The translations under genes and the position numbers were made by a program. Of a DNA stretch of 64,000 bases, positions 3,662-48,443 are shown one piece after another. The first letter of the stretch is position 1; each line of letters opens with the position of its first letter. The stretch is taken from IMG/VR virus record IMGVR_UViG_3300037484_000445, positions 195,863 through 259,862 of that record; one strand, written 5' to 3'. This DNA comes from a virus. Taxonomy: Duplodnaviria; Heunggongvirae; Uroviricota; Caudoviricetes. The notes under the pieces are model-generated. The model saw nothing but the letters and a program-made list of their open reading frames with translations. It made no database searches and was not told the origin of the DNA.

Positions 3662-4516
3662 ATGCCTGCGAAAAAGGTAACTCTCTCTATCCCCCAGATC
3701 CGGGATGCTCTGGTAGCGTCCGTGGCGGGAGCCGCTACGAAGATCGGGAATTGGTTGGATTTCCTCAATGGTCTTCCCGACCCTCAGCCCATTTCGTCGA
3801 TCGTTCAGCAGGTGGCTGCAAGCCTGCCTGATTCATCAAAGCCCCAGAAGCCTGCTCTGGCTAAGCCGGCCAAGGAAGCGAATATTGCTCCGGCTAAACC
3901 AGCCAAGGAAGCGAAGGCCGCCAAGCCAGCGAAGGCCGCCAAGCCAGCGAAGGCTCCCAAACCGGCGAAGCCCACGAAGGCTGCAAAACCAGCTAAGGCT
4001 GCTAAGCCCGCCAAGACGCCCAAACCTGCCAACGACGCTAAGCCCGCCAAGACGCCCAAGGTTCGTACCAAGCCCACTCTCCCACAAGCTGTAGCTATTG
4101 TGATGGGCACCAAGGTCATGGGCACGGCTGACCTGATCCCTCTAGTCAAGGCACGCGGATGGGCACCAGATTCGAAGAACAATCTGGCGCAATACTTCTC
4201 TGTGATATTGAGTAGCAACAACGGCCCGGGCAAGATCTTCGAACGCGTCGAGACGGGTAAGTATCGGGTCCGAAATCCGGCTCAATTCGCAGCATTGGCT
4301 AAGCAGTACGGAGGCAAGTCGTCGGGAAAAGCCGATAGGGTCACTACCGATGAACCAGCGGATGTTTCTGACGACGTCGAGGTATCAGAAGCACCCGTGG
4401 TTAGTGACCCACCCAGCACCAGCAACCCCGTAGAAGACATTGACGAGGCTTTAGAAACCTTGATCACAGGCACAGGATTCACAACGAACGTTGACGGGTC
4501 TCCACCCGTAGACTGA
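3662..4516 (+). CDS. histone H1-like (PAK-repeat) DNA-binding protein with winged-HTH (HARE-HTH-like) domain
   Basis: AKPAKA repeats at aa 67-133, then ...LVKARGW...YFSVILSS...FERVETGKYRV, then an acidic tail. Confidence 0.7.
   Translation: MPAKKVTLSIPQIRDALVASVAGAATKIGNWLDFLNGLPDPQPISSIVQQVAASLPDSSKPQKPALAKPAKEANIAPAKPAKEAKAAKPAKAAKPAKAPKPAKPTKAAKPAKAAKPAKTPKPANDAKPAKTPKVRTKPTLPQAVAIVMGTKVMGTADLIPLVKARGWAPDSKNNLAQYFSVILSSNNGPGKIFERVETGKYRVRNPAQFAALAKQYGGKSSGKADRVTTDEPADVSDDVEVSEAPVVSDPPSTSNPVEDIDEALETLITGTGFTTNVDGSPPVD
3860..4060 (+). repeat. intragenic degenerate tandem repeat encoding (K/A)PAKAA units
   Basis: For example gccaagccagcgaagg x2 and gctaagcccgccaagacgcccaa x2. Confidence 0.85.
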
Positions 4517-38249: not shown

Positions 38250-38750
38250 ATGCCTACTTCCACTCCAGCCTCAGATAGTGACCGCCCTATTGACCCCAAC
38301 CAAGAGCTTGCTGGCCTTGATAGGATCGTCGAAGTCATAGCCCGACTCGTTCTCAAGTTCGGCCGTGCTACGTCAGCACTTTTGGCTATCGGCGGCCTCT
38401 TGATCCTATGCCTGATCATTCTCATTGTCTCGATGGTCCAGTTCATAACCATTCGCAATGAGATGCGAGATCTTCTCGACCGCCAGGAACTCCTTATTAA
38501 GTCCCAAGCCCGTCTCGAGAAGTCCGCCCTAGCCACACAAGTGGTACTCGAGGAAACCCAAAAGAAGGTGTCCGAGACTCAAGCTAAGGTCGAAACCGTG
38601 GCTGAATCCACCCCCAAAATCAAGGTGGATTCAAAGACAGGTAAGACCCGACTTGTCATTCAAAAGCCTGCTGTAGCACCAAGTGTGTCGGCGCCCTCTA
38701 AGCCGGCCGAGGTGGAATTCAACATTGGGCCAGGTATCAAGGCTGATTGA
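38250..38750 (+). CDS. single-TM coiled-coil protein
   Basis: ALLAIGGLLILCLIILIVSM then coiled coil. Confidence 0.6.
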   Translation: MPTSTPASDSDRPIDPNQELAGLDRIVEVIARLVLKFGRATSALLAIGGLLILCLIILIVSMVQFITIRNEMRDLLDRQELLIKSQARLEKSALATQVVLEETQKKVSETQAKVETVAESTPKIKVDSKTGKTRLVIQKPAVAPSVSAPSKPAEVEFNIGPGIKAD

Positions 38751-39282
38751 GTAGTCGAGTCCTGAGGTACATCAGGACTCGACCAAGCTTGTTCTCACCA
38801 ACCTTGGATGAGCCCCAACCCCAGTATGGATCGGGTATGGCGTCCTCGATGAGAGGCTCCGTACCCGTCCCTATTAGGGTGTCGTAAATGCTTTGGTGTT
38901 GTGTCACCTTAGCTCGTACTACCTCGAACATAACAACGTCTTTGGTGCGAGCAAACAAGGGCTCCGCTGTGACACCACAACGATTGATACCGTCGTCAGG
39001 CTGAGGTTTTTGGCTCAGTAGTGCTTGTAGGGCGTCGTTAGGTGCTAGGTCCCAGTCTTTTCTAAGGGGATAGCTCCTATTGCGGCCAAGCCGTGCCGCC
39101 GTTCCTGGGGTCTCAGCATCTAGAATGAGCTTCACCAAGTCTGGTCGGTGTGGGTGGAACTTCATCGCCTGAAATGCCGCTTCAGAAGTCTTCCACGTGT
39201 GCCCATAGATCTGCACTTCATGCCGGGAGAAGTTAGAGAAACACCCGTAAGGGTCGTTGGGGCTGTAAAACAGGATGGCCAT
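38737..39282 (-). CDS. NADAR (YbiA-like) ADP-ribose glycohydrolase
   Basis: YGCFSNF, SEAAFQAMKF, LIED...YWG.G...GENKLG..LM. Confidence 0.9.
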   Translation of the reverse strand: MAILFYSPNDPYGCFSNFSRHEVQIYGHTWKTSEAAFQAMKFHPHRPDLVKLILDAETPGTAARLGRNRSYPLRKDWDLAPNDALQALLSQKPQPDDGINRCGVTAEPLFARTKDVVMFEVVRAKVTQHQSIYDTLIGTGTEPLIEDAIPDPYWGWGSSKVGENKLGRVLMYLRTRLLNQP

Positions 39283-39329
39283 GACCGGTTTCTACACCAG
39301 CCACGGCCACCACACTACAGCTCTTCAGG

Positions 39330-41069
39330 CTACTTCAAACTGAGGCCGTAGATCTTGTGTCCTCGTTCGAAGGCGGCACGGCCATTGGCGATCATGAGGC
39401 GCATGTCGTTTCCAATGGCTGGGTCGTCCACAACCTTCACGGACTTGGACCCCTTGGAGGCCGAGAAGGCTTCCAGCTTGTCCTCCTCGGTGATAACGAT
39501 ACAGACCCCTGAGGCCAAAGTGATGAAGTTCAACCCTGTGAGGGCTATGTCTTCGACCTTTCGTAGGTCGTAAGTCAGGTAATCCGGATCGAAGCGGAAA
39601 ATCAGGCGGTCATACTTGCCCGCTTGCTCTCCAACTACCATGAGGACTCCACCCTCGAACTTGGCTTCCAAAACCTTGTATTTGTCGAGCTCTGGTACAC
39701 GAACTTGGTACCCCCTGTGGCTCTGTGGGAACAAGGAAATGTAAATCGATCCGATCATGCTTTGGATAACCACCCCTTCATAGAGGTCCGAGGCTTGTTC
39801 CAAAACATCGGCCACACAATGTGAAGCCGAGACTAGACAGGTATTGGCCAATTCGGAGAACTCGACTTCAAGGACTCGAGAACCGTTACGGACGTAGAAG
39901 CGGTCACCACTTTTGGCTAAGTCGTTGGCGTTGATCTCGAGGACTTCAGACTTTCTGGCCGAGTAGTTGAAGAATGTCAGCTTCTTTTGGTAACTGTTCA
40001 GGCCAACGGGCAAGTTTTTCTTTGGCGTGAACCCAATGAGAGTTTCACCGGGGATCGTAGCGCCTTCGAATATGCATTGGCCGTTGTGAAGCAGTCTGGA
40101 TCGGCCGTCCTTGGTGATGAGGGCCAAAGTTGATCCGTTGCTCTCTGCGTATTGGAGCAAAGTCCACTCCTCGTAGTCGAAGATGTCCGAGATGACCAGG
40201 TTCCCGCCAGTAACGACGAGAGGTACCATAGGACCGGTGAAAATGACCGCTGCTGGGCCTCCACGGGGGTCGGGCGGGGGTAGACGCTTCCCGTCCTCAA
40301 GAACGGCCTTGAGCCAATCCTTGAAGTTGGAGGGGATGACGTCAAAGGGCAGAGCACATCCAGGCAGTCTAGCCCCCGTCCTGAAGGCCGAGATGTTGTT
40401 CCGCATCCGATATTCCATCTGGTCCTGCGAGGGCATCCCATCAGTCAGAGGGTGGTTACCCCCGTAAGGGTGGACCCGCGTGTACAGCTGGAACATCAAG
40501 ACGGCATAGCTGTACCAATCTGATAGCTCAGACCACCCATCCGAACTCTTGACTGAGTAGTCTCGTATTAAGGGGCTGAGGAAGGTTGCCGGGTAACCAG
40601 CTACTTGGTAGGAATCAACGTCAATGAAGTAGGCGTCATCCCAAGTATCTGGGATCAAGACGTTCATGGCATTGAAGTCGATCATAAGCGCCTTGGCGGC
40701 GTGAATATGTGGCACATGTTCCCAAATCTTGGCGGACACGGTCACGATGTTGTCTTGCGAGACCTTATTGCGATCTCGAAAAGTCTTCGTGAAGAGATGC
40801 CCAAGCGTGTGCTTCGAGGGTACCTCTTTCATCGTGTACCCGATGGGGACCTTTTTGCTATCAAGCAGGATACTTTCGGGCTTGATGACGTGGTCGTCAG
40901 CGATTACCTTGAGGATCTGAAACTTGGCATCCGGTATAGCGTTAGCCGGATCCGTGTAGATTTTGAAGGCTTGACCCTGGTACACGTAGACCGAGGCTTG
41001 ACCACCTGCAGCCCGAAAGTGATTTTGCGTGAGGTTCACATCCCCGACACCCTTGACTGTAACCTTCAT
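39330..41069 (-). CDS. YegI-like protein kinase with beta-rich C-terminal half
   Basis: GGQASVY, AFKIY, DFNAMNVL, IDVDSYQ, SDWYSYAVL...HPY.G. Confidence 0.8.
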   Translation of the reverse strand: MKVTVKGVGDVNLTQNHFRAAGGQASVYVYQGQAFKIYTDPANAIPDAKFQILKVIADDHVIKPESILLDSKKVPIGYTMKEVPSKHTLGHLFTKTFRDRNKVSQDNIVTVSAKIWEHVPHIHAAKALMIDFNAMNVLIPDTWDDAYFIDVDSYQVAGYPATFLSPLIRDYSVKSSDGWSELSDWYSYAVLMFQLYTRVHPYGGNHPLTDGMPSQDQMEYRMRNNISAFRTGARLPGCALPFDVIPSNFKDWLKAVLEDGKRLPPPDPRGGPAAVIFTGPMVPLVVTGGNLVISDIFDYEEWTLLQYAESNGSTLALITKDGRSRLLHNGQCIFEGATIPGETLIGFTPKKNLPVGLNSYQKKLTFFNYSARKSEVLEINANDLAKSGDRFYVRNGSRVLEVEFSELANTCLVSASHCVADVLEQASDLYEGVVIQSMIGSIYISLFPQSHRGYQVRVPELDKYKVLEAKFEGGVLMVVGEQAGKYDRLIFRFDPDYLTYDLRKVEDIALTGLNFITLASGVCIVITEEDKLEAFSASKGSKSVKVVDDPAIGNDMRLMIANGRAAFERGHKIYGLSLK

Positions 41070-41923
41070 GCTAGTTCTCCCAAGTAGAGGCCGGCTACAG
41101 ACAAGTCATCCGTGTGCTTCCATTTGTTCTCGGCACAGAAGCGCTCAAGGAACATGCTGCAACGTCGAGTGATGAACTTCCCCGCGAAGCCCTTGAGGGC
41201 GAAGACTTGATCCAACACCTTTTCGATCGGGACAGGTTGATTGTCTGGTGTTTGGAAGCTCTCCACACCGTCCGAGAAGATGATAGCCAGATCGATGTCT
41301 TCGCGGCGGAAGCTCTGAGCATCTATGGGGGCAGCCACATTCAAGAATAGGGTTGAGGTTGTGGGGGTACCCCACTCTCCTTGTTCTGTTCGATAATTGT
41401 CGAGGTATTGCACAGTTTTTGCCTCGCTGAAGTATTGAGCCAATTGTTTGGGCTCCAATTGGTAGCGGAGGTAGTTGGGCATGTTGTTGCCGTACTTGAC
41501 TGTGCTGTAGTAAATTCTACCGTTCCGATAGCGGACAGCTATGACGCCATCCCCGCATCGAAAGGCTCCGATCGCATCCCCGTCTTGAATGACCCCGACG
41601 AGCGTAGCATCCAAGGCGGTGTTCCCCAACATAGCCTGTCTGGCCATAGCCATAGCGTCGGCAGTGATTTTGATGGCTGGAAACGTCTCTTGCAGGTCAA
41701 GCGCTCTGGAAACCTGAACTTCTGACAGGTAACGGCAGGTGGATCGAACTAAGAACCGGGATCCGAAGTCCGTGAAAGGTGACCCCGGAATGTTAGGTTC
41801 TGGCTGACCTGAACAACCGTCGGAGATCAAAGCGTACTGCCGACCATCTTTCGTTCCGGATAGTGCATAGTCCTGGCAGATTGTGTGGAGGGAACCCATA
41901 CGGAAAAAGAAGTCGTTGCTCAT
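41066..41923 (-). CDS. PP2C-like (YegK-type) protein phosphatase
   Basis: H..CQDYA, ISDGCS, CGDG, FSDGVESF, DDLS. Confidence 0.82.
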   Translation of the reverse strand: MSNDFFFRMGSLHTICQDYALSGTKDGRQYALISDGCSGQPEPNIPGSPFTDFGSRFLVRSTCRYLSEVQVSRALDLQETFPAIKITADAMAMARQAMLGNTALDATLVGVIQDGDAIGAFRCGDGVIAVRYRNGRIYYSTVKYGNNMPNYLRYQLEPKQLAQYFSEAKTVQYLDNYRTEQGEWGTPTTSTLFLNVAAPIDAQSFRREDIDLAIIFSDGVESFQTPDNQPVPIEKVLDQVFALKGFAGKFITRRCSMFLERFCAENKWKHTDDLSVAGLYLGELA

Positions 41924-41957
41924 CGGTAAGCCTTCAGCTGGGAGAGGTGGTAAGGGG

Positions 41958-41987
41958 GAGGCTCCTCGTATGGATACGAAGAGCCTC
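41958..41987 (-). promoter_or_regulatory. 13-14-bp intra-operon hairpin between the vWA and PP2C genes
   Basis: gaggctcctcgtat-gg-atacgaagagcctc. Confidence 0.55.
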
Positions 41988-42006
41988 GCTAGTCCCCTCA
42001 ACCAAT

Positions 42007-42750
42007 TCAGAACGTAATTGGCTTGCTGGCGCTGCCGGTGCCCAAGGACTGGGACTGGCTCGACACCGAGGCAACGACGAACCCGGCAATCTTGGCAAAC
42101 GTTTTGGGGTCGGCCTTGTCGACTTCAATGTATTGGTCGATGTTGGCGGCTTGAACGAAATCCTTGAGACACTGACTGATTCGAGGATCAGTGATGTTGA
42201 CCCCGATGAGGATGATGATGATCGATTCCAAAGACTCTTGCTGACGAGCCTTATCCACGGCGGCCTTTACGTCGCCAACGGGATGGGTCGATCCAACATC
42301 TTCACCGTCCGTCACGATGACCACGATGCCGTTGGCCTTGTAGTCCTTGGCGATCAGATCCTTACCTGCGTTGGCCAAGGACTCGACAATATTCACGGAA
42401 GCGTCGTACAAGGACGTGCAACCACCAGGCCTGATGATGCCCTTGTAGGAATCCGGAGCACAATCGACCAACAGCTTGAAGTCGTGAACCTGATCGACGT
42501 TGCTGTCGAAGGTCAAACAACGAACCAACATGTTGTCGGCCCGGGGAGCATTTTGGCAACCCTTGATCACGTTCGTGGCGGCGTCTTCGATGATCTGCCG
42601 GAACCCGGTGACGCTTCCGCTTTTGTCCAGAATGAGGCCGAACAGGGTGTAGGAGTCGGCGCCCAGGTCGTTAACGTTGATGTTCGAAAAACCGTAGTGG
42701 CTCGTCTTGATTGGGGCGGCAGTCGTGTCGTCATCCATTAGTGGGGGCAT
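42007..42750 (-). CDS. vWA-domain (TerY-like) protein
   Basis: LILDKSGSV MIDAS, TFD, GGCTSLYDA, IVTDGED. Confidence 0.85.
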   Translation of the reverse strand: MPPLMDDDTTAAPIKTSHYGFSNINVNDLGADSYTLFGLILDKSGSVTGFRQIIEDAATNVIKGCQNAPRADNMLVRCLTFDSNVDQVHDFKLLVDCAPDSYKGIIRPGGCTSLYDASVNIVESLANAGKDLIAKDYKANGIVVIVTDGEDVGSTHPVGDVKAAVDKARQQESLESIIIILIGVNITDPRISQCLKDFVQAANIDQYIEVDKADPKTFAKIAGFVVASVSSQSQSLGTGSASKPITF

Positions 42751-42804
42751 AGTGCGAAGTCCTTAGGGATTGATTCTGATCTGAGTTTGGAAGTTGAAGA
42801 TTGG

Positions 42805-43608
42805 TTACGCTAGGAAATCGACCGAAGTCGAAACGTTCATACCACGGCCGGTCATCTCCTTGATGAACGCGTCACCAAGAGCTTCACAGCCTGTTACGTT
42901 TGATGTGGTGTCCGTCAACAGCCACATCTTCTTGATGAGGTTCGGATCTGAGAAGGCGTTGACGGTATCTCGGAAGGTGTTAGCCAAACAGTGGGAGAGA
43001 GCTTCACCGGTCCAAGCCAGCATATCAGCGGTCTCGAAGACCTGGATCAACGGGCGGTTCAACTGAGTAGTAGGATCCTCAGGGTCCGGAACTTCAGCGC
43101 GGACGGCACTGAAATGCTCAGTGTAGGGATTCGAACCCTTGGTGACCTTGTTGGCCGTGGCGTATCGAGTCCGCTCCCAGTAGTCAACGGCATCCACAAG
43201 ATCGTCATTGAGGTTGTTTCCTTCACGCCCGATCAAACAGTGCTCGGGCCAAATCATGTGGGGGTAACGCCCGGTAGCTTCCAGGGCTTGGAGGTACTTG
43301 TACGACCGATCACGAGCTTTGGCCGAACGCGTACGCCACTTACCTGCCTTGAAGTCTGCCGGTGTGATAACCGTGAAAGGCGCTGGTGCGTTGCCGCTGT
43401 CGTTGATCCACCAAGTCGGATGGCTGATATCAATGAGATCGTGGCTATCCATGGTCACGTGGATGTCCGAAATCTTGGGAGTCAAGCGCTTGATCATCTT
43501 GGAGGTTCGTCCGGCGTTGTCCTCGCCCCCTTTGACGTAAAGAGCCCCATTCGGTCGGGTGAAGTCTTTTTGAATGTCGATGCAGACGATTTGCAGATTG
43601 AGTGCCAT
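42805..43608 (-). CDS. pncA: nicotinamidase (PncA)-like cysteine hydrolase
   Basis: IDIQKDF, TMDSH, HPTWW, WPEHC, KGSNP, GEALSHC. Confidence 0.8.
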   Translation of the reverse strand: MALNLQIVCIDIQKDFTRPNGALYVKGGEDNAGRTSKMIKRLTPKISDIHVTMDSHDLIDISHPTWWINDSGNAPAPFTVITPADFKAGKWRTRSAKARDRSYKYLQALEATGRYPHMIWPEHCLIGREGNNLNDDLVDAVDYWERTRYATANKVTKGSNPYTEHFSAVRAEVPDPEDPTTQLNRPLIQVFETADMLAWTGEALSHCLANTFRDTVNAFSDPNLIKKMWLLTDTTSNVTGCEALGDAFIKEMTGRGMNVSTSVDFLA

Positions 43609-43623
43609 AAATAACCGATTCTC

Positions 43624-44322
43624 CTAACGTTTCTTTGGAGCGAAGTCCAAGGTAATACCACTAGCCAACAAGTCATCGTACGCACTGCGGTTGAACGAGT
43701 ACGTTGGGGCGGGACGATGATCTCCCCGTCGTACTCCCTTTTCGGTAAGGACTCCCAAAGCTTGCATTCGCTTATGGAAGTTGGAAGCATCTAGAGTTCG
43801 TCTGAGCAGGGCTTCATAAAGGTCCTTGAGCTCTCCTAGGGTAAACTCCGTTGGTAGAAGTTCGAAACCTAACGGGGAATACCTGACCTTGGTGGACAGC
43901 CTTTCTAAGGCCATCTCCAGGATGTCATTGTGGTCGAAGGCAAGCTTGGCACTAAAAGCCTTGTCAATGCCCGACCAAAAGGCCTCTTTGGTTTTGAATC
44001 CAGCTTGAGGGTGCAGTTTATCCGACCGGATCACGCCGAGGTAGGCGATAGATATCACCCAATCCCCTGGATCTCGGTCAGGATTACTGAAGGTGTACAG
44101 TTGTTCTAAGTGGGTAGGCCGTATAGCAGTCTTGTCTTTGAGTACTCGATAGGCAGTTCCTTGCGCCGTCTCACCGGCATGCATATAGCCCCCTGGGAGG
44201 GCCAGATGCCCCCTATACGTCCCTTCAGCGCGTTCAATAAGGAGCACCTGCAAATATTCTGCCTGGGGGTTGAAACCAAAGACGACCGCATCCACTGCCA
44301 CGTAGGGTTTAGGAAACGTCAT
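43624..44322 (-). CDS. nrtR: NrtR (NUDIX + winged-HTH) ADP-ribose-sensing repressor
   Basis: VAVDAVVF, LALPGG, LEQLYTF...RDP, LAFDH..I, FTLGEL, LDASNFHKR; the Nudix box is degenerate (RVLKDK). Confidence 0.9.
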   Translation of the reverse strand: MTFPKPYVAVDAVVFGFNPQAEYLQVLLIERAEGTYRGHLALPGGYMHAGETAQGTAYRVLKDKTAIRPTHLEQLYTFSNPDRDPGDWVISIAYLGVIRSDKLHPQAGFKTKEAFWSGIDKAFSAKLAFDHNDILEMALERLSTKVRYSPLGFELLPTEFTLGELKDLYEALLRRTLDASNFHKRMQALGVLTEKGVRRGDHRPAPTYSFNRSAYDDLLASGITLDFAPKKR

Positions 44323-44383
44323 GCTACCTTATGGGCACAATGGCCACAACCGCGGTATATACACCAGCGGACATCGGATTACG

Positions 44384-44427
44384 TTCTGGTGATGACTACC
44401 ATAAGGTTTTGGTAAAGTACACCAAAA
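44384..44427. promoter_or_regulatory. two tandem 21-bp NrtR-type operators, the second overlapping a GGTGTA element
   Basis: TTCTGGT-GATGACT-ACCATAA (44384-44404) and TTTTGGT-AAAGTAC-ACCAAAA (44407-44427). Confidence 0.75.
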
Positions 44428-44478
44428 AGTAACGCCTCTCAGACGATTCTTCACTGACGCAGCTAAGTACTTGAAAGA

Positions 44479-45144
44479 TCAGAAGTCTGAGTCATCGGCC
44501 AAGATGCGATCTAGAATAGACGGTCCGGGATCCTCGGGCTTCGGTGGATCTTCGGACTGGTTGGTGCGTGGCTCATTGAGGCTTTGAATGGCGTATCGTA
44601 AGGCGTCGAGAGAGTCGTGCCAAAAGGCTCGGTCTTCGTGAGGTCTTATAGTGTTTCTGTCTACGCCCCGAGCACGAGCCAACTCTTCCACGAAGCTCAC
44701 ATTGACTGGCTCACCGTCTATTTGTATGACATGCCCTTCGGAGTCACGTCCCCCAACAAAATTAGGTTGAGGCTCGATCAAAGGCATTGGGGGAAAACCG
44801 TCCAAGTAGGGAATAAGTGAGAGGCTTGAATCGTGTTCTGGCAGCCAATCCTCAATAGCTAGGGGAAGATTGATTTGAAAGAACCTAGATGTACAGGTGT
44901 AGTGTTGGCCCAGGTGAGGGTCTTCGTGGATCAAAGTCCTCACTTGCTCCCTTACATGTTCGGCTAAATGACGTCCTGGGACGTGATCCCAAAAATTGAT
45001 ACGCTGCCCTGGGTGCCTAGCGGCCATGCGAATCATGGCAATAGCTAGGGTCGTGGACCTCCCTGATCGACGAGCTCCATCATCAAGTAGCCACTCCAAG
45101 TAAGGCAGGGCTAGCAACTGCCAAGGTCTCAAATTCAGCGGCAC
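44479..45144 (-). CDS. hypothetical protein with P-loop-like GRSTT segment and C-terminal ILDRILADD motif
   Basis: RRSGRSTT; ends GPSILDRILADDSDF. Confidence 0.65.
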   Translation of the reverse strand: MPLNLRPWQLLALPYLEWLLDDGARRSGRSTTLAIAMIRMAARHPGQRINFWDHVPGRHLAEHVREQVRTLIHEDPHLGQHYTCTSRFFQINLPLAIEDWLPEHDSSLSLIPYLDGFPPMPLIEPQPNFVGGRDSEGHVIQIDGEPVNVSFVEELARARGVDRNTIRPHEDRAFWHDSLDALRYAIQSLNEPRTNQSEDPPKPEDPGPSILDRILADDSDF

Positions 45145-45154
45145 CCTTCGAGGC

Positions 45155-45171
45155 TACACCGCTTTGGTGTA
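45155..45171. promoter_or_regulatory. back-to-back GGTGTA elements serving divergent genes
   Basis: tacacc-gcttt-ggtgta, 10 and 11 nt from the starts at 45144 and 45183. Confidence 0.7.
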
Positions 45172-45182
45172 TTTCACACCCT

Positions 45183-45974
45183 ATGACTGACCTGTGGATG
45201 CGAATTCAACGTGTCAAGAACGATGAGGCCCTGTTGGAGGGTCTTACGTGGCGACGTCGGGAAGAGCGCTTGGCTGAAATGCCTGTTCCCTTCTGTTGTC
45301 CCAATATAGCCGGGGTTCAAGCCGTGTTTCCCCGACTCGAAGGGAATATCCCCACGGGATGGCTGACGACTGCACCAAAGCGTGGTTCGGACTTCGATCG
45401 AAAAATGGGTGTCGCCAAGTATTGTCCATTTTGCGGGACGGTACTTCCTGGCTTCCGTTTGAAGAAGAGTCCACCCGAGCATATCCAGGTCATTGATAGC
45501 CTGGACTACTGTGGCCTTTGCCATGAGCGCTACAACGGTTGCTTCTGCTCATACCCTCTTAGTGCCTGGGAAGTCGACAACGCCCCAAGTATCGTTGCTG
45601 TGACGGCTTTGATAGAACGAGAGGGAGATGAGATTCTCTCGGTCTCACGTAAGACCGACCCTAATGCCAAAGGACTTCCTGGCGGCAAGGTTGAGCTCAA
45701 TGAATCCCTTGAAACGGCTATGTGTCGAGAGCTGCTTGAAGAAACAGGGCTAATTGCTCTTGAGTTTCATCGAGTGTTTGATGCTTTGGACTCAACGGGT
45801 ATACGGGTAGTTTGCCTCAGGGTAACAAGGACTGAGAAAAAGAGTGCATCCGTTGAAAAGGGTGTTGTGCAATGGGTGAAACCGACAGCGCTAGTGACGA
45901 TGAGTCCTTTTGGGACTTTCAATTGGGGCTTGATGCAGAGGATCTCGACGCTCAACATGACGCCGCTAATCTAG
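45183..45974 (+). CDS. Cys-rich N-domain + NUDIX hydrolase
   Basis: CPFCG, CGLC..CFC; GGKVELNESLETAMCRELLEETG. Confidence 0.8.
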   Translation: MTDLWMRIQRVKNDEALLEGLTWRRREERLAEMPVPFCCPNIAGVQAVFPRLEGNIPTGWLTTAPKRGSDFDRKMGVAKYCPFCGTVLPGFRLKKSPPEHIQVIDSLDYCGLCHERYNGCFCSYPLSAWEVDNAPSIVAVTALIEREGDEILSVSRKTDPNAKGLPGGKVELNESLETAMCRELLEETGLIALEFHRVFDALDSTGIRVVCLRVTRTEKKSASVEKGVVQWVKPTALVTMSPFGTFNWGLMQRISTLNMTPLI

Positions 45975-46006
45975 CTAATTGCTTGGTCGAAAACAGCTAC
46001 TCGTGG

Positions 46007-46792
46007 ATGCCGCCCCTAAGAGGTTTCAATCTTGGAGTCAGCGTATTTCGATGGTTTCGTCTCAAGCTAGGGTATAAGCGTGTTGAGCCTTGTATGGTGA
46101 AGGCCAGCATACCGAACGATCCAGGCTATCCAGAACCCTCCTGGGTGAAAGAAGAGGATTCAAGCCTAAGTTCAATCCTAGATGATCAATTGGGCCATGA
46201 CGATCACGCTTGGGTTAGCTGGGGCCTGGAAAATGGTGTTAGTCCAGGTCAACCCTTTCTAATTGGGTTTCTAAAGCCCGTGTGGTCTCGCTGTAGCTAC
46301 GAGTACGACGAATGGGATGCTGACTACCCTTGGGAGTTGATTCGAGTTCTCCCTAATAACCCTGTGTCCGCTATTCAATCTTGGGATAGGGCTCTCAAGC
46401 AAATGGCCGCCATAAGGGTCAAGAAACAGCGACACTCCGAGCATACCCACCGCCTAAGTCTAGCCCTCAAGCATCGTTGGAGGATTGACGTTCAACATTT
46501 TGGAGGTTCCCACTTCAATAGCCCTGATCGCGTGCAACTCAGCCTTATCTGTGCTTCACGAGAAGCAGGGAACTCGCACCTGGCCTGGGGGGAAGCCGGA
46601 GGTAACCACTACGTATCCGGAGTTGGTTATGTCCAGGAGCGCTCCGACAAGGATGTAGCCTTTTCTCGGCTACTAGCAAACTTCATGAAGAGTCACCCCG
46701 AGGAGGATCCCGCGCCGTTAATTGAGCTAGCAGGCACGGCCGGGATCGCACTCACTCGGATTGATCGGATCCTCTATGCGTCAACGGGGTAG
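46007..46792 (+). CDS. hypothetical protein
   Basis: Start uncertain. Confidence 0.6.
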   Translation: MPPLRGFNLGVSVFRWFRLKLGYKRVEPCMVKASIPNDPGYPEPSWVKEEDSSLSSILDDQLGHDDHAWVSWGLENGVSPGQPFLIGFLKPVWSRCSYEYDEWDADYPWELIRVLPNNPVSAIQSWDRALKQMAAIRVKKQRHSEHTHRLSLALKHRWRIDVQHFGGSHFNSPDRVQLSLICASREAGNSHLAWGEAGGNHYVSGVGYVQERSDKDVAFSRLLANFMKSHPEEDPAPLIELAGTAGIALTRIDRILYASTG

Positions 46793-47902
46793 GGCCGAAA
46801 GAATCATACCCAAAGTCGACCAGTCTACGAGGTTCTCTGCGGCGATGTCTGCCACGTCTCGGACTTCAATGTAAGTTCGTTCGGATTCGGCGAGAACCCC
46901 GTGGGCAGATTTGTCAGCCTCAAGGATAGCCAACTCCTCTGAGGTCAGTTCTGCTACGAACAAGGTGCTGGTATGGGTTGTGAGCGTGGCACAGAGCTGC
47001 CGGGACTCTCGCTTGGTGAACCTGGCCGGGTCCATTACGAGGCCGGTCTCTTCGTGAACCTCTTCGGCAGCAACCTCAAGGGGGTTGGCCTTCTTGTCCG
47101 GCGAGGAACCGCTAGGAAGCTCGTAGACAAAGCACTCGGGGTTACGGGCAGGGCTGCGGAACTCTCGCACTAGGACGACTTTGGTGCCCTTGTAGAGCAA
47201 GACGGCTGATATGTCGGGCCTAAATAGGCAAAACTCGTTGATCTTACTTCGGTGCTCTTTGGCAATCCAAACCCGGACGTGAACCGTGTAGCAGAATAGT
47301 GCCCCGCTCTTGGGGGCGTGAAAGCTGCTCACTACCCGTCCGCCCTCGAGGCGGTTGCCTACTTTTAGCTGAGCCTGGTACCAGGATTGGAAGTCCTTTC
47401 GTTTCCAAATGTGTAGAGGAATTGTACATTCCCCTCCCGTCCGGAGAGCACCTTCCCCCAGAAAATGTTCTAAGGCCCACTCGAGGGCTTGCTTCAGGTC
47501 GATAGTCCCCGGGACTCGAAGCTTCTTGGCATAATGGACGGGGTACCGGGTATGAGTGGCTTCTGGAGGAGCTGCCCATATTACCTTGCCGGTATCCTCC
47601 CAGCGACCCCATTCGATATTGGTTGTCAAAGCGGGCTGCTCATCGCTTCGAGGAACCCAGAAGACAATGACGTCCGCACGGTTCAGGGCCTCTTCTTCCC
47701 ATTCGATCTGTTCTGTGATCTTACCGTTGAAGCCTCCACGAACCTCGGGGACGAACACAGTGCCATCATAACCAAGACTTTCGAGGATGTTAAGGGCCTC
47801 GACTCTCCATGAAGGGCTGTCGTCTCGAGGTGTGGGACCGGTTAGAAATATGGACTTAGTGACAGTTGTTGGAAATGGTTCTTGAGATTGAATTATATCC
47901 AT
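46781..47902 (-). CDS. nucleoside 2-deoxyribosyltransferase-like + NUDIX fusion
   Basis: IFLTGPTPR...SWR...EQIEWE...ADVIVFWVPR...TTNIEWG; ELPSGS...EEVHEETG. Confidence 0.8.
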   Translation of the reverse strand: MDIIQSQEPFPTTVTKSIFLTGPTPRDDSPSWRVEALNILESLGYDGTVFVPEVRGGFNGKITEQIEWEEEALNRADVIVFWVPRSDEQPALTTNIEWGRWEDTGKVIWAAPPEATHTRYPVHYAKKLRVPGTIDLKQALEWALEHFLGEGALRTGGECTIPLHIWKRKDFQSWYQAQLKVGNRLEGGRVVSSFHAPKSGALFCYTVHVRVWIAKEHRSKINEFCLFRPDISAVLLYKGTKVVLVREFRSPARNPECFVYELPSGSSPDKKANPLEVAAEEVHEETGLVMDPARFTKRESRQLCATLTTHTSTLFVAELTSEELAILEADKSAHGVLAESERTYIEVRDVADIAAENLVDWSTLGMILSALPR

Positions 47903-47911
47903 GTGTGTTCA

Positions 47912-47927
47912 TACACCAAGTGGTGTA
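47912..47927. promoter_or_regulatory. back-to-back GGTGTA elements serving divergent genes
   Basis: tacacc-aagt-ggtgta, 9 and 12 nt from the ATGs at 47902 and 47940. Confidence 0.7.
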
Positions 47928-47939
47928 TGGTCTGGAACA

Positions 47940-48443
47940 ATGATTGATCTGAAGCCTTCACCCAAAGGCTTGATTGTTGGTGCCTTCACAGACCGTAATG
48001 GCCGTGAGTGTGTTATCCAGGAGTCCTCTGTTCCTTCAGAATCTTGCCTATGGCTTGGCGTAGATTTGGGTTTGAATGGAGAGCCGATCCCTGGCGGTCG
48101 CATGCATCTCACACGAGAATTAGTGTTGGACCTTCTCCCGATTCTCCGGCACTTTGCTCGAACAGGATCATTGGGTTACGACGACCCAAGCCAACAGTTT
48201 CAAATAGGCACCTGGGTCATTGGTGTGGGGCCTGACAATAAGGGTGTGTTCGGTCGTGTCACAGAGGTATCTCCTGGAAGGTATCTCAAAGTTCAGGACG
48301 ATACTCGTATCCCTCCCGCAGGACAGATCAGTTGTGCTTGGGACCAAGTAGATTTGATCTGGGAGGTGACCCAAGAACGACAAGTCGACGATAGCCCCAC
48401 TCCCTTGGAACGTATTCTACGAGAGGACCACGACGATGATTGA
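47940..48443 (+). CDS. two-domain hypothetical protein with C-terminal LERIL.EDHDDD motif
   Basis: FTDRNG..C.IQESS...CLWLG...MHLTRE; acidic tail. Confidence 0.7.
   Translation: MIDLKPSPKGLIVGAFTDRNGRECVIQESSVPSESCLWLGVDLGLNGEPIPGGRMHLTRELVLDLLPILRHFARTGSLGYDDPSQQFQIGTWVIGVGPDNKGVFGRVTEVSPGRYLKVQDDTRIPPAGQISCAWDQVDLIWEVTQERQVDDSPTPLERILREDHDDD

Follow-up and report, generated by a model that had tools for sequence, protein, structure and literature searches.

Two 21-bp inverted repeats, B1 and B2, lie side by side upstream of the nrtR gene of this phage. They are likely to be tandem operators of the adjacent NrtR protein, which would repress its own gene together with those for a predicted nicotinamidase, a vWA-like protein, a PP2C-type phosphatase and a kinase-like protein. 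The window analysed was a stretch of 64,000 nt (positions 1-64,000), part of a source genome of 451,925 bp. We infer the binding, the repression, the promoter used and the ligand from the anatomy of the sequence, the family of the protein, the uniqueness of the boxes in the genome, and their conservation and co-variation with the protein.

Boxes and GGTGTA copies upstream of nrtR

The boxes all lie in the 156 nt that separate nrtR (43624-44322) from the preceding gene (44479-45144), both genes being on the minus strand. On the minus strand, the stop of the upstream gene (44479) is followed by 51 nt, B1 (44427-44407), 2 nt, B2 (44404-44384), 18 nt, a GGTGTA (44365-44360), 10 nt, a third candidate site, B3 (44349-44329), 6 nt and the ATG of nrtR (44322). 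B1 and B2 together occupy the region 62-105 nt upstream of the ATG, and their centres are 23 bp apart. The arms of the putative distal operator B1 (TTTTGGT-AAAGTAC-ACCAAAA) are complementary at 7/7 positions, and it was also recovered by an inverted-repeat search. On the coding (minus) strand it reads TTTTGGTGTACTTTACCAAAA, with GGTGTA inside it at 44423-44418. The putative proximal operator B2 (TTCTGGT-GATGACT-ACCATAA) is symmetric at 6/7 positions, and the weak candidate B3 (TTATGGG-CACAATG-GCCACAA), between the proximal GGTGTA and the ATG, at 5/7. NrtR operators are 21-bp palindromes with a GT-N7-AC core, placed over the promoter or between the promoter and the start (PMC2330246), and this core is present in both B1 and B2. 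The tandem sites before Shewanella prs-nadV were both bound in EMSA (Rodionov et al. 2008, PMC2330246). The preliminary description of this DNA had read B1 and B2 as tandem NrtR boxes; the palindromes, their core and the 2-bp separation were as it described, and its positions for all the boxes and both GGTGTA copies were correct when the sequence was re-read.

The genome-wide scan for the bare core TGGT-N7-ACCA that it proposed gave 10 occurrences in 452 kb, about the chance rate. For the full arms, TTYTGGT-N7-ACCARAA, only B1 and B2 were found genome-wide at one mismatch or fewer; at two mismatches there were 9 genome sites, compared with 1-5 in shuffles. A non-circular test was made with an arm-only matrix derived from the nrtR-locus boxes of three other phages (L001, L002 and L029). 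Over 451,905 positions this matrix ranked B1 first (22.0 bits) and B2 second (19.0 bits), the next-best sites in the genome scoring 15.0-16.3 bits. The consensus and matrix scans exclude B1 and B2 as chance palindromes. The two boxes are in the regulatory region of nrtR, B1 holding a GGTGTA and B2 lying at its predicted transcript start; they combine recurrence in relatives (below) with the top two ranks in the genome, and are very probably NrtR-type operators, placed at the phage nrtR.

No other genome site approaches B1 and B2 with the arm-only matrix, so the regulon looks local. Matches near the distant NAD-salvage cluster (genome positions 443167 and 445871) were at background level, and in relatives the exact boxes are likewise confined to the nrtR locus. 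No match was obtained in IMG/VR with the exact B1 pattern or with a single protein, nor among GenBank phages in a megablast of 39000-48000.

B3 is present where the preliminary description placed a third box, but it reads GC-N7-CC on the coding strand and so departs from the family core at its T and A. Against the strict consensus it has 4 mismatches, as do 458 genome sites. If positions 3 and 19 are disregarded, 2 remain, both of which strike the T and A of GT-N7-AC; two mismatches or fewer are found in 27 genome sites, B1 and B2 included. The chance of a site matching the loose consensus within the 156-nt gap is about 1%. It is possible that B3 is a low-affinity site, at best a weak one.

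The hexamer GGTGTA is a real positional signal of this phage. There are 317 copies in the genome, where about 220 would be expected, and 113 of them are canonical, ie an ORF starts 9-13 nt downstream. The consensus of the canonical copies is tTGGTGTAt and nothing further upstream is conserved; the 203 non-canonical copies are close to random expectation. The element is a putative promoter of this phage. No sigma-70 promoter was found within the gap.

Two copies of the element precede nrtR. P1 (44418-44423, minus strand) occupies positions 5-10 of B1, 95 nt before the ATG, and has a flank score of 1.77, an average match at the 48th percentile of the 113 canonical copies. P2 (44355-44367, minus strand, CTGGTGTATATAC) is left uncovered by B1 and B2: its GGTGTA is separated by 18 bp from B2 on its upstream side, by 10 bp from B3 on its downstream side and by 37 nt from the ATG. 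Its flank score is 3.95. Neither has the canonical distance of 9-13 nt to the start codon, and nrtR, with its copies 95 and 37 nt from the ATG, is therefore unusual among GGTGTA genes. If transcript starts are placed as at leaderless ATGs, that of P1 would fall where B1 meets B2, so that B1 covers the element and B2 covers +1 to +21; that of P2 would fall at the B3 edge, which puts B2 at about -35 to -55.

Outside the gap, the element occurs back to back, as TACACC-N4/5-GGTGTA, at 45155-45171 and 47912-47927. At each site they would form a compact palindromic double promoter for divergent genes, 45144(-) and 45183(+) at the first and 47902(-) and 47940(+) at the second. A 101-aa ORF on the plus strand (44092-44415) runs antisense to nrtR and into B1 and B2. 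Its GTG start is 12 nt after a GGTGTA with a poor flank score (-4.5), probably a chance occurrence.

Several RNA features were considered for the gap and rejected. The sole terminator-like hairpin (44445-44433) is weak, with 5 pairs, and is broken in strain L060. There is a perfect 9-nt inverted repeat, 44326-44334/44399-44407 (ACCTTATGG/CCATAAGGT), which pairs the left arm and flank of B2 with the right arm of B3 and the ribosome-binding region. A leader that hides the ribosome-binding site was rejected, as the minimum-energy fold omits this pairing and is no better than that of shuffles (z -0.88). The repeat may be mere half-site similarity or a split operator. An NAD riboswitch or other known RNA was rejected, there being no Rfam match.

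The NrtR protein and its predicted operon

The nrtR product (232 aa, minus strand) consists of Nudix and NrtR winged-helix domains. It matches PF00293 (residues 8-135) and PF21906 (residues 152-210) above the Pfam cut-offs, and PF19368 as well. Its profile found AraR (5bs6, E 7e-68) and Shewanella NrtR (3gz5/3gz6) in the PDB, with full-length alignment to each. By these matches the product of 43624-44322 is a true NrtR-family protein. Its closest protein relatives (P0001-P0008) are 45-98% identical, and its terminal branch is long, 1.25 compared with a median of 0.49.

The recognition helix LDASNFHKRM and the wing HRPAP provide D178, S180, N181, K184 and a wing Arg, which correspond to D167, T169, N170, R173 and R196 of Mycobacterium smegmatis NrtR (MsNrtR). 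The Asp, the Asn and the wing Arg are kept, Thr is replaced by Ser and Arg by Lys; these equivalences come from a manual motif alignment, not from structure, and the equivalent of K179 is uncertain. The Nudix box is degenerate. It reads RVLKDKTA, resembling the inactive RKLAEKTA of Shewanella NrtR, with which it shares the Lys that contacts the ADP phosphate. In Shewanella oneidensis NrtR (SoNrtR) the ADP-ribose contacts are Tyr10, Phe15, Arg41, Asn43, Lys76 and Arg98 (PMC4666351). Three of the six are kept here, as Arg31 (Arg41), Lys64 (Lys76) and, probably, Phe3 (Phe15). Arg98 corresponds to Gly86 and Asn43 to Glu33, and the equivalent of Tyr10 falls before the N-terminus. Because the effector pocket is just partly kept, ADP-ribose would be the family-default ligand only. 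The sequence around Gly86, RDPGD (residues 83-87), is also that of the 98% strain variant, compared with RDPR in 26/28 aligned homologues. It removes the equivalent of Shewanella Arg98, and the arabinose-binding BtAraR likewise has Gly there.

Downstream of nrtR, after 15 nt, is a gene for a 267-aa protein (42805-43608, minus strand). The protein itself has no Pfam match. A profile of seven phage homologues matched yeast Pnc1 (2h0r, E 1.6e-13), Mycobacterium tuberculosis PncA (3pl1, E 8.7e-9) and other nicotinamidases. The candidate catalytic residues Asp11, Lys157 and Cys207, an assignment made by motif reading, are present together with the metal site Asp54-x-His56...His62, and Lys157 and Cys207 are invariant across the phage homologues. 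On these grounds the protein is assigned as a divergent PncA-type nicotinamidase of isochorismatase-like fold. It is followed on the same strand by genes for a vWA-like protein (42007-42750, 247 aa; weak match to Pfam VWA_2, E 0.021), a PP2C-type phosphatase (41066-42001, 311 aa; PF13672, E 8e-13) and a kinase-like protein (39330-41069, 579 aa; weak Pkinase match, E 0.003). The vWA-like gene is kept beside the nicotinamidase in related phages, and phage loci also keep the kinase-like gene together with the PP2C and vWA genes. Between nrtR and the kinase-like gene the intergenic gaps are 15, 54 and 5 nt, followed by a 4-nt overlap, and there is no internal GGTGTA; this suggests that the genes down to 39330 form one unit, of which the kinase-like gene is probably the last. 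The adjacent NADAR-domain gene (38737-39282, minus strand; PF08719, E 1.8e-26) has its own canonical GGTGTA at 39298-39293, 10 nt before its ATG, and need not depend on NrtR. PADLOC gave no match for the NrtR, nicotinamidase-like, vWA and PP2C proteins, and weak or single-domain matches only for the kinase-like (mad6), NADAR and neighbouring Nudix proteins, so the block is not identified as a known defence system.

The nicotinamidase-vWA-PP2C-kinase block is found with nrtR first in L001, as in the window, and wholly or partly, with nrtR last, in L008, L019, L021 and L026-L032. In the cassettes with nrtR last no box was found in the reachable DNA of related phages, and there was nothing convincing in L059. 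In L002, L005 and L009 nrtR is followed instead by a phosphoribosyltransferase gene of the NadV/NAMPT type, located directly after it (L002:6821-8269, L005:6709-8097 and L009:6735-8150). In L009 the NadV-type gene is followed by one for a CinA plus cytidylyltransferase-like protein. All three loci look like NARP2-like salvage operons in which a phage nrtR comes first and boxes lie on the promoter.

Boxes and recognition helices in related loci

An alignment-based scan of IMG/VR gave 36 phage loci with a full-length NrtR, mostly on contigs of 100-620 kb. Counted over the 220 nt upstream of nrtR at these loci, GT-N7-AC palindromes symmetric at 6/7 positions or more have a density of 2.1e-3 per nt; over the remainder of each locus the density is 9e-5 per nt. 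This enrichment is about 20-fold and stays near that value when duplicate strains are omitted; several of the sites counted as elsewhere precede an operon gene ahead of nrtR (L002, L022 and L029). The preliminary description had let its reading hang on conservation of the palindromes at orthologous operons, and boxes do recur there, upstream of nrtR or of the operon-first gene.

Tandem pairs 22-25 bp apart were found in phages L010/11/17, L015 and L018, where the spacing is 23-24 bp, and are common directly upstream of bacterial nrtR, as in L087, L091, L094, L077, L123 and L134. In L010/11/17, where nrtR is canonical leaderless, GGTGTA is within a box; in L012-14 it is flanked by two boxes; in L002 it follows the box by 5 nt, and in L009 it precedes a set of three overlapping boxes by 7 nt. 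The phages of all these loci (L002, L009, L010/11/17 and L012-14) use TGGTGTA-N9-13-ATG genome-wide. Strain L060 (98% identical) has 7 substitutions in the 156-nt gap, including one in the B2 spacer, which spare the arms, the GGTGTA copies and B3. The sparing of the arms is consistent with constraint and is not significant, about 1.3 substitutions being expected.

Palindromes of other forms were also seen. In L030, a perfect 21-bp palindrome (TGGAAAC-N7-GTTTCCA, at about 715-745) is located some 50 nt upstream of a nicotinamidase homologue, the first gene of a cassette whose last is a divergent nrtR. The palindrome may be an operator of another specificity class, AC...GT rather than GT...AC. 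L022 has two TTATTGT-N7-ACAATAA boxes, at about 1843-1863 and 4365-4385, each just after a TTGAC-type hexamer. The first precedes a textbook nicotinamidase start (MNKALIIVDVQNDF) and the second a gene with an N-terminal CxxxCxxC motif (radical-SAM-like by eye). With this pair, another phage contig would have an NrtR regulon whose promoters are sigma-70-like.

The half-site sequence varies with the residue before Asn-Phe in the recognition helix, which corresponds to the DNA-contact residue Thr169 of MsNrtR. Six phage NrtRs, those of the window, L001, L002, L029, L009 and probably L005, have Ser at this position and TGGT half-sites. Arg is found with GTGT/GCGT half-sites (of the form TTAGTGT-N7-ACACTAA) in phages L010, L015 and L025 and at about 45 bacterial loci. 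TTGT half-sites are found with Gly in L004 and with Arg in L022. In a maximum-likelihood tree the loci that combine Ser with TGGT occupy at least three distinct positions, and L005, a probable member of this group, is the strongly supported sister of a Gly/TTGT pair. This co-variation, the best indirect evidence available, argues for the adjacent protein, and not a host factor, as the reader of the boxes.

That conclusion bears on a different reading of the palindromes, in which a host NrtR or other regulator binds them and the phage operon is plugged into the NAD regulon of the host. In its favour, host NrtR proteins also recognise sites of this 21-bp form. However, the Arg-type helices at the bacterial loci go with GTGT/GCGT and not with TGGT, which tracks the Ser-type helices of phages, and the boxes are directly before the phage's own nrtR, as at autoregulated bacterial loci; we regard a host regulator as very unlikely. 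Less probable still, and barely credible, is that the palindromes form hairpins in RNA or DNA, for instance as a terminator or leader structure, or arose by chance and have no regulatory role. The T-run of the weak hairpin at 44445-44433 overlaps the edge of B1, and the 9-nt repeat links B2 to the ribosome-binding region, but the stems of B1 and B2 themselves are AT-rich, 7 bp long and not followed by a T-run, and chance was ruled out by the scans described above.

A closer question is which GGTGTA the operators control. NrtR might bind B1 and B2 while P2 drives the operon, the boxes, at about -35 to -78, then modulating or activating it and the GGTGTA of P1 being coincidental. P2 is the better match to the element, at the 83rd percentile compared with the 48th for P1, it carries the extended TATATAC known from other copies, and completion of P1 by GTA, given the TGGT half-site, has a random probability of about 3%. 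Set against this arrangement, which we consider unlikely, are the descriptions of characterised NrtR proteins as repressors (PMC2330246, PMC6800001) and the layout in relatives, where at least one box overlaps or abuts a GGTGTA (0-7 nt). The layout of P1 reproduces this box-on-element pattern and that of P2 does not, and for this reason we lean towards P1 as the NrtR-controlled promoter, with P2 a second, perhaps leakier one. The preliminary description had put one box on top of the phage promoter and proposed autorepression by promoter occlusion. A GGTGTA does lie within B1, and the protein family, the form of the operators and the boxes at GGTGTA in relatives favour occlusion; against it, P1 is an average match and P2, the better one, is not covered by a strong box.

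The proposed circuit and related systems

If NrtR binds as other members of its family do, two dimers would sit side by side over 44384-44427. B1 would cover P1 and B2 the transcript start of P1, 13 nt after the element as at leaderless ATGs, so that P1 would be shut. Bound NrtR could also be a roadblock to read-through from the upstream gene, since there is no conserved terminator between that gene and the boxes. P2 would perhaps be repressed less tightly, or be the source of basal expression. The outcome would be a negative autoregulatory loop over nrtR, the nicotinamidase, vWA, PP2C and kinase genes. With no repressor present at the start, the operon would fire at infection and then limit itself. 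Binding of a ligand to the Nudix domain, for which the family points to ADP-ribose or a related product of NAD breakdown, would open it again. The recurrent, often tandem boxes that overlap or abut GGTGTA in relatives favour a circuit adapted to phage transcription rather than passive capture, as the preliminary description had suggested.

More tentatively, and with considerable doubt, NrtR may be a sensor of immune activity. An ADP-ribose-type product of a host TIR/SIR2-type NADase would free B1 and B2 and so switch on a counter-measure operon, in which the nicotinamidase would feed nicotinate salvage genes elsewhere in the phage and would be accompanied by the vWA/PP2C/kinase signalling trio. 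The Ser/TGGT pairing would separate the circuit from a host regulon of the GTGT type, and would let the half-site double as the promoter consensus TTGGTGTA.

One of the nearest characterised systems is that of S. oneidensis NrtR (SO1979; 3gz5/3gz6). In common with it, the phage protein has a Nudix domain and winged helix, a degenerate Nudix box with the same Lys, and two adjacent 21-bp GT-N7-AC palindromes. Unlike the Shewanella protein it is phage-encoded, its half-site is TGGT, it has Ser rather than Arg/Lys chemistry before Asn-Phe, and Arg98 of the pocket is replaced by Gly. Its presumed target is its own operon, with nicotinamidase, vWA, PP2C and kinase genes as cargo, and not prs-nadV, and the promoter would be the phage GGTGTA element, not one of the sigma-70 type. 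Nicotinamidase is a classic member of NrtR regulons (PMC2330246), and a predicted nicotinamidase is the first cargo gene here. MsNrtR is an autorepressor with an inactive Nudix domain, and ADP-ribose releases it from DNA (Gao et al. 2019, PMC6800001). The phage system resembles it in having a palindrome at its own gene and equivalent DNA-contact positions. MsNrtR differs in its operator, GTTTTCGA-N7-TCGAAAAC, in controlling the de novo genes nadABC and in being chromosomal.

The bacterial ARG-centred conflict systems combine a Nudix-HTH or WYL repressor with a phosphatase, a vWA chaperone and NADAR or Macro (Iyer et al. 2022, PMC9503650, section 3.8). They share with the window an NrtR-like negative regulator, a predicted ADP-ribose sensor, beside vWA, phosphatase and NADAR genes (PMC9503650). 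In contrast to those systems, no ADP-ribosylglycohydrolase was found here, PP2C is paired with a kinase, the nicotinamidase comes first and the unit is phage-borne. NARP2 (NadV plus NMN adenylyltransferase) is likewise a phage NAD salvage system, and the order nrtR-NadV-type gene is seen in the relatives L002, L005 and L009, whereas the NrtR unit of the window carries a PncA-type gene and not NadV. The NARP3 paper mentions NrtR only as bacterial background (PMC13464706). Our literature search found no paper on a phage-encoded NrtR, its operators or NrtR in jumbo or huge phages, none on the control of phage NAD+-rebuilding genes, and no functional study of the nicotinamidase-vWA-PP2C-kinase block.

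It is now established that phages can restore NAD+ and in this way evade immunity that depletes NAD. If the present reading is correct, huge phages, dozens of them, have conserved an NrtR whose operators are fused to a phage promoter signal, and this would be a testable example of a virus steering metabolic or counter-defence genes by a small-molecule signal. It would tie the widespread nicotinamidase-vWA-PP2C-kinase block to NAD and ADP-ribose biology, and Ser/TGGT and Arg/GTGT would provide a natural specificity pair for the study of NrtR-DNA recognition.
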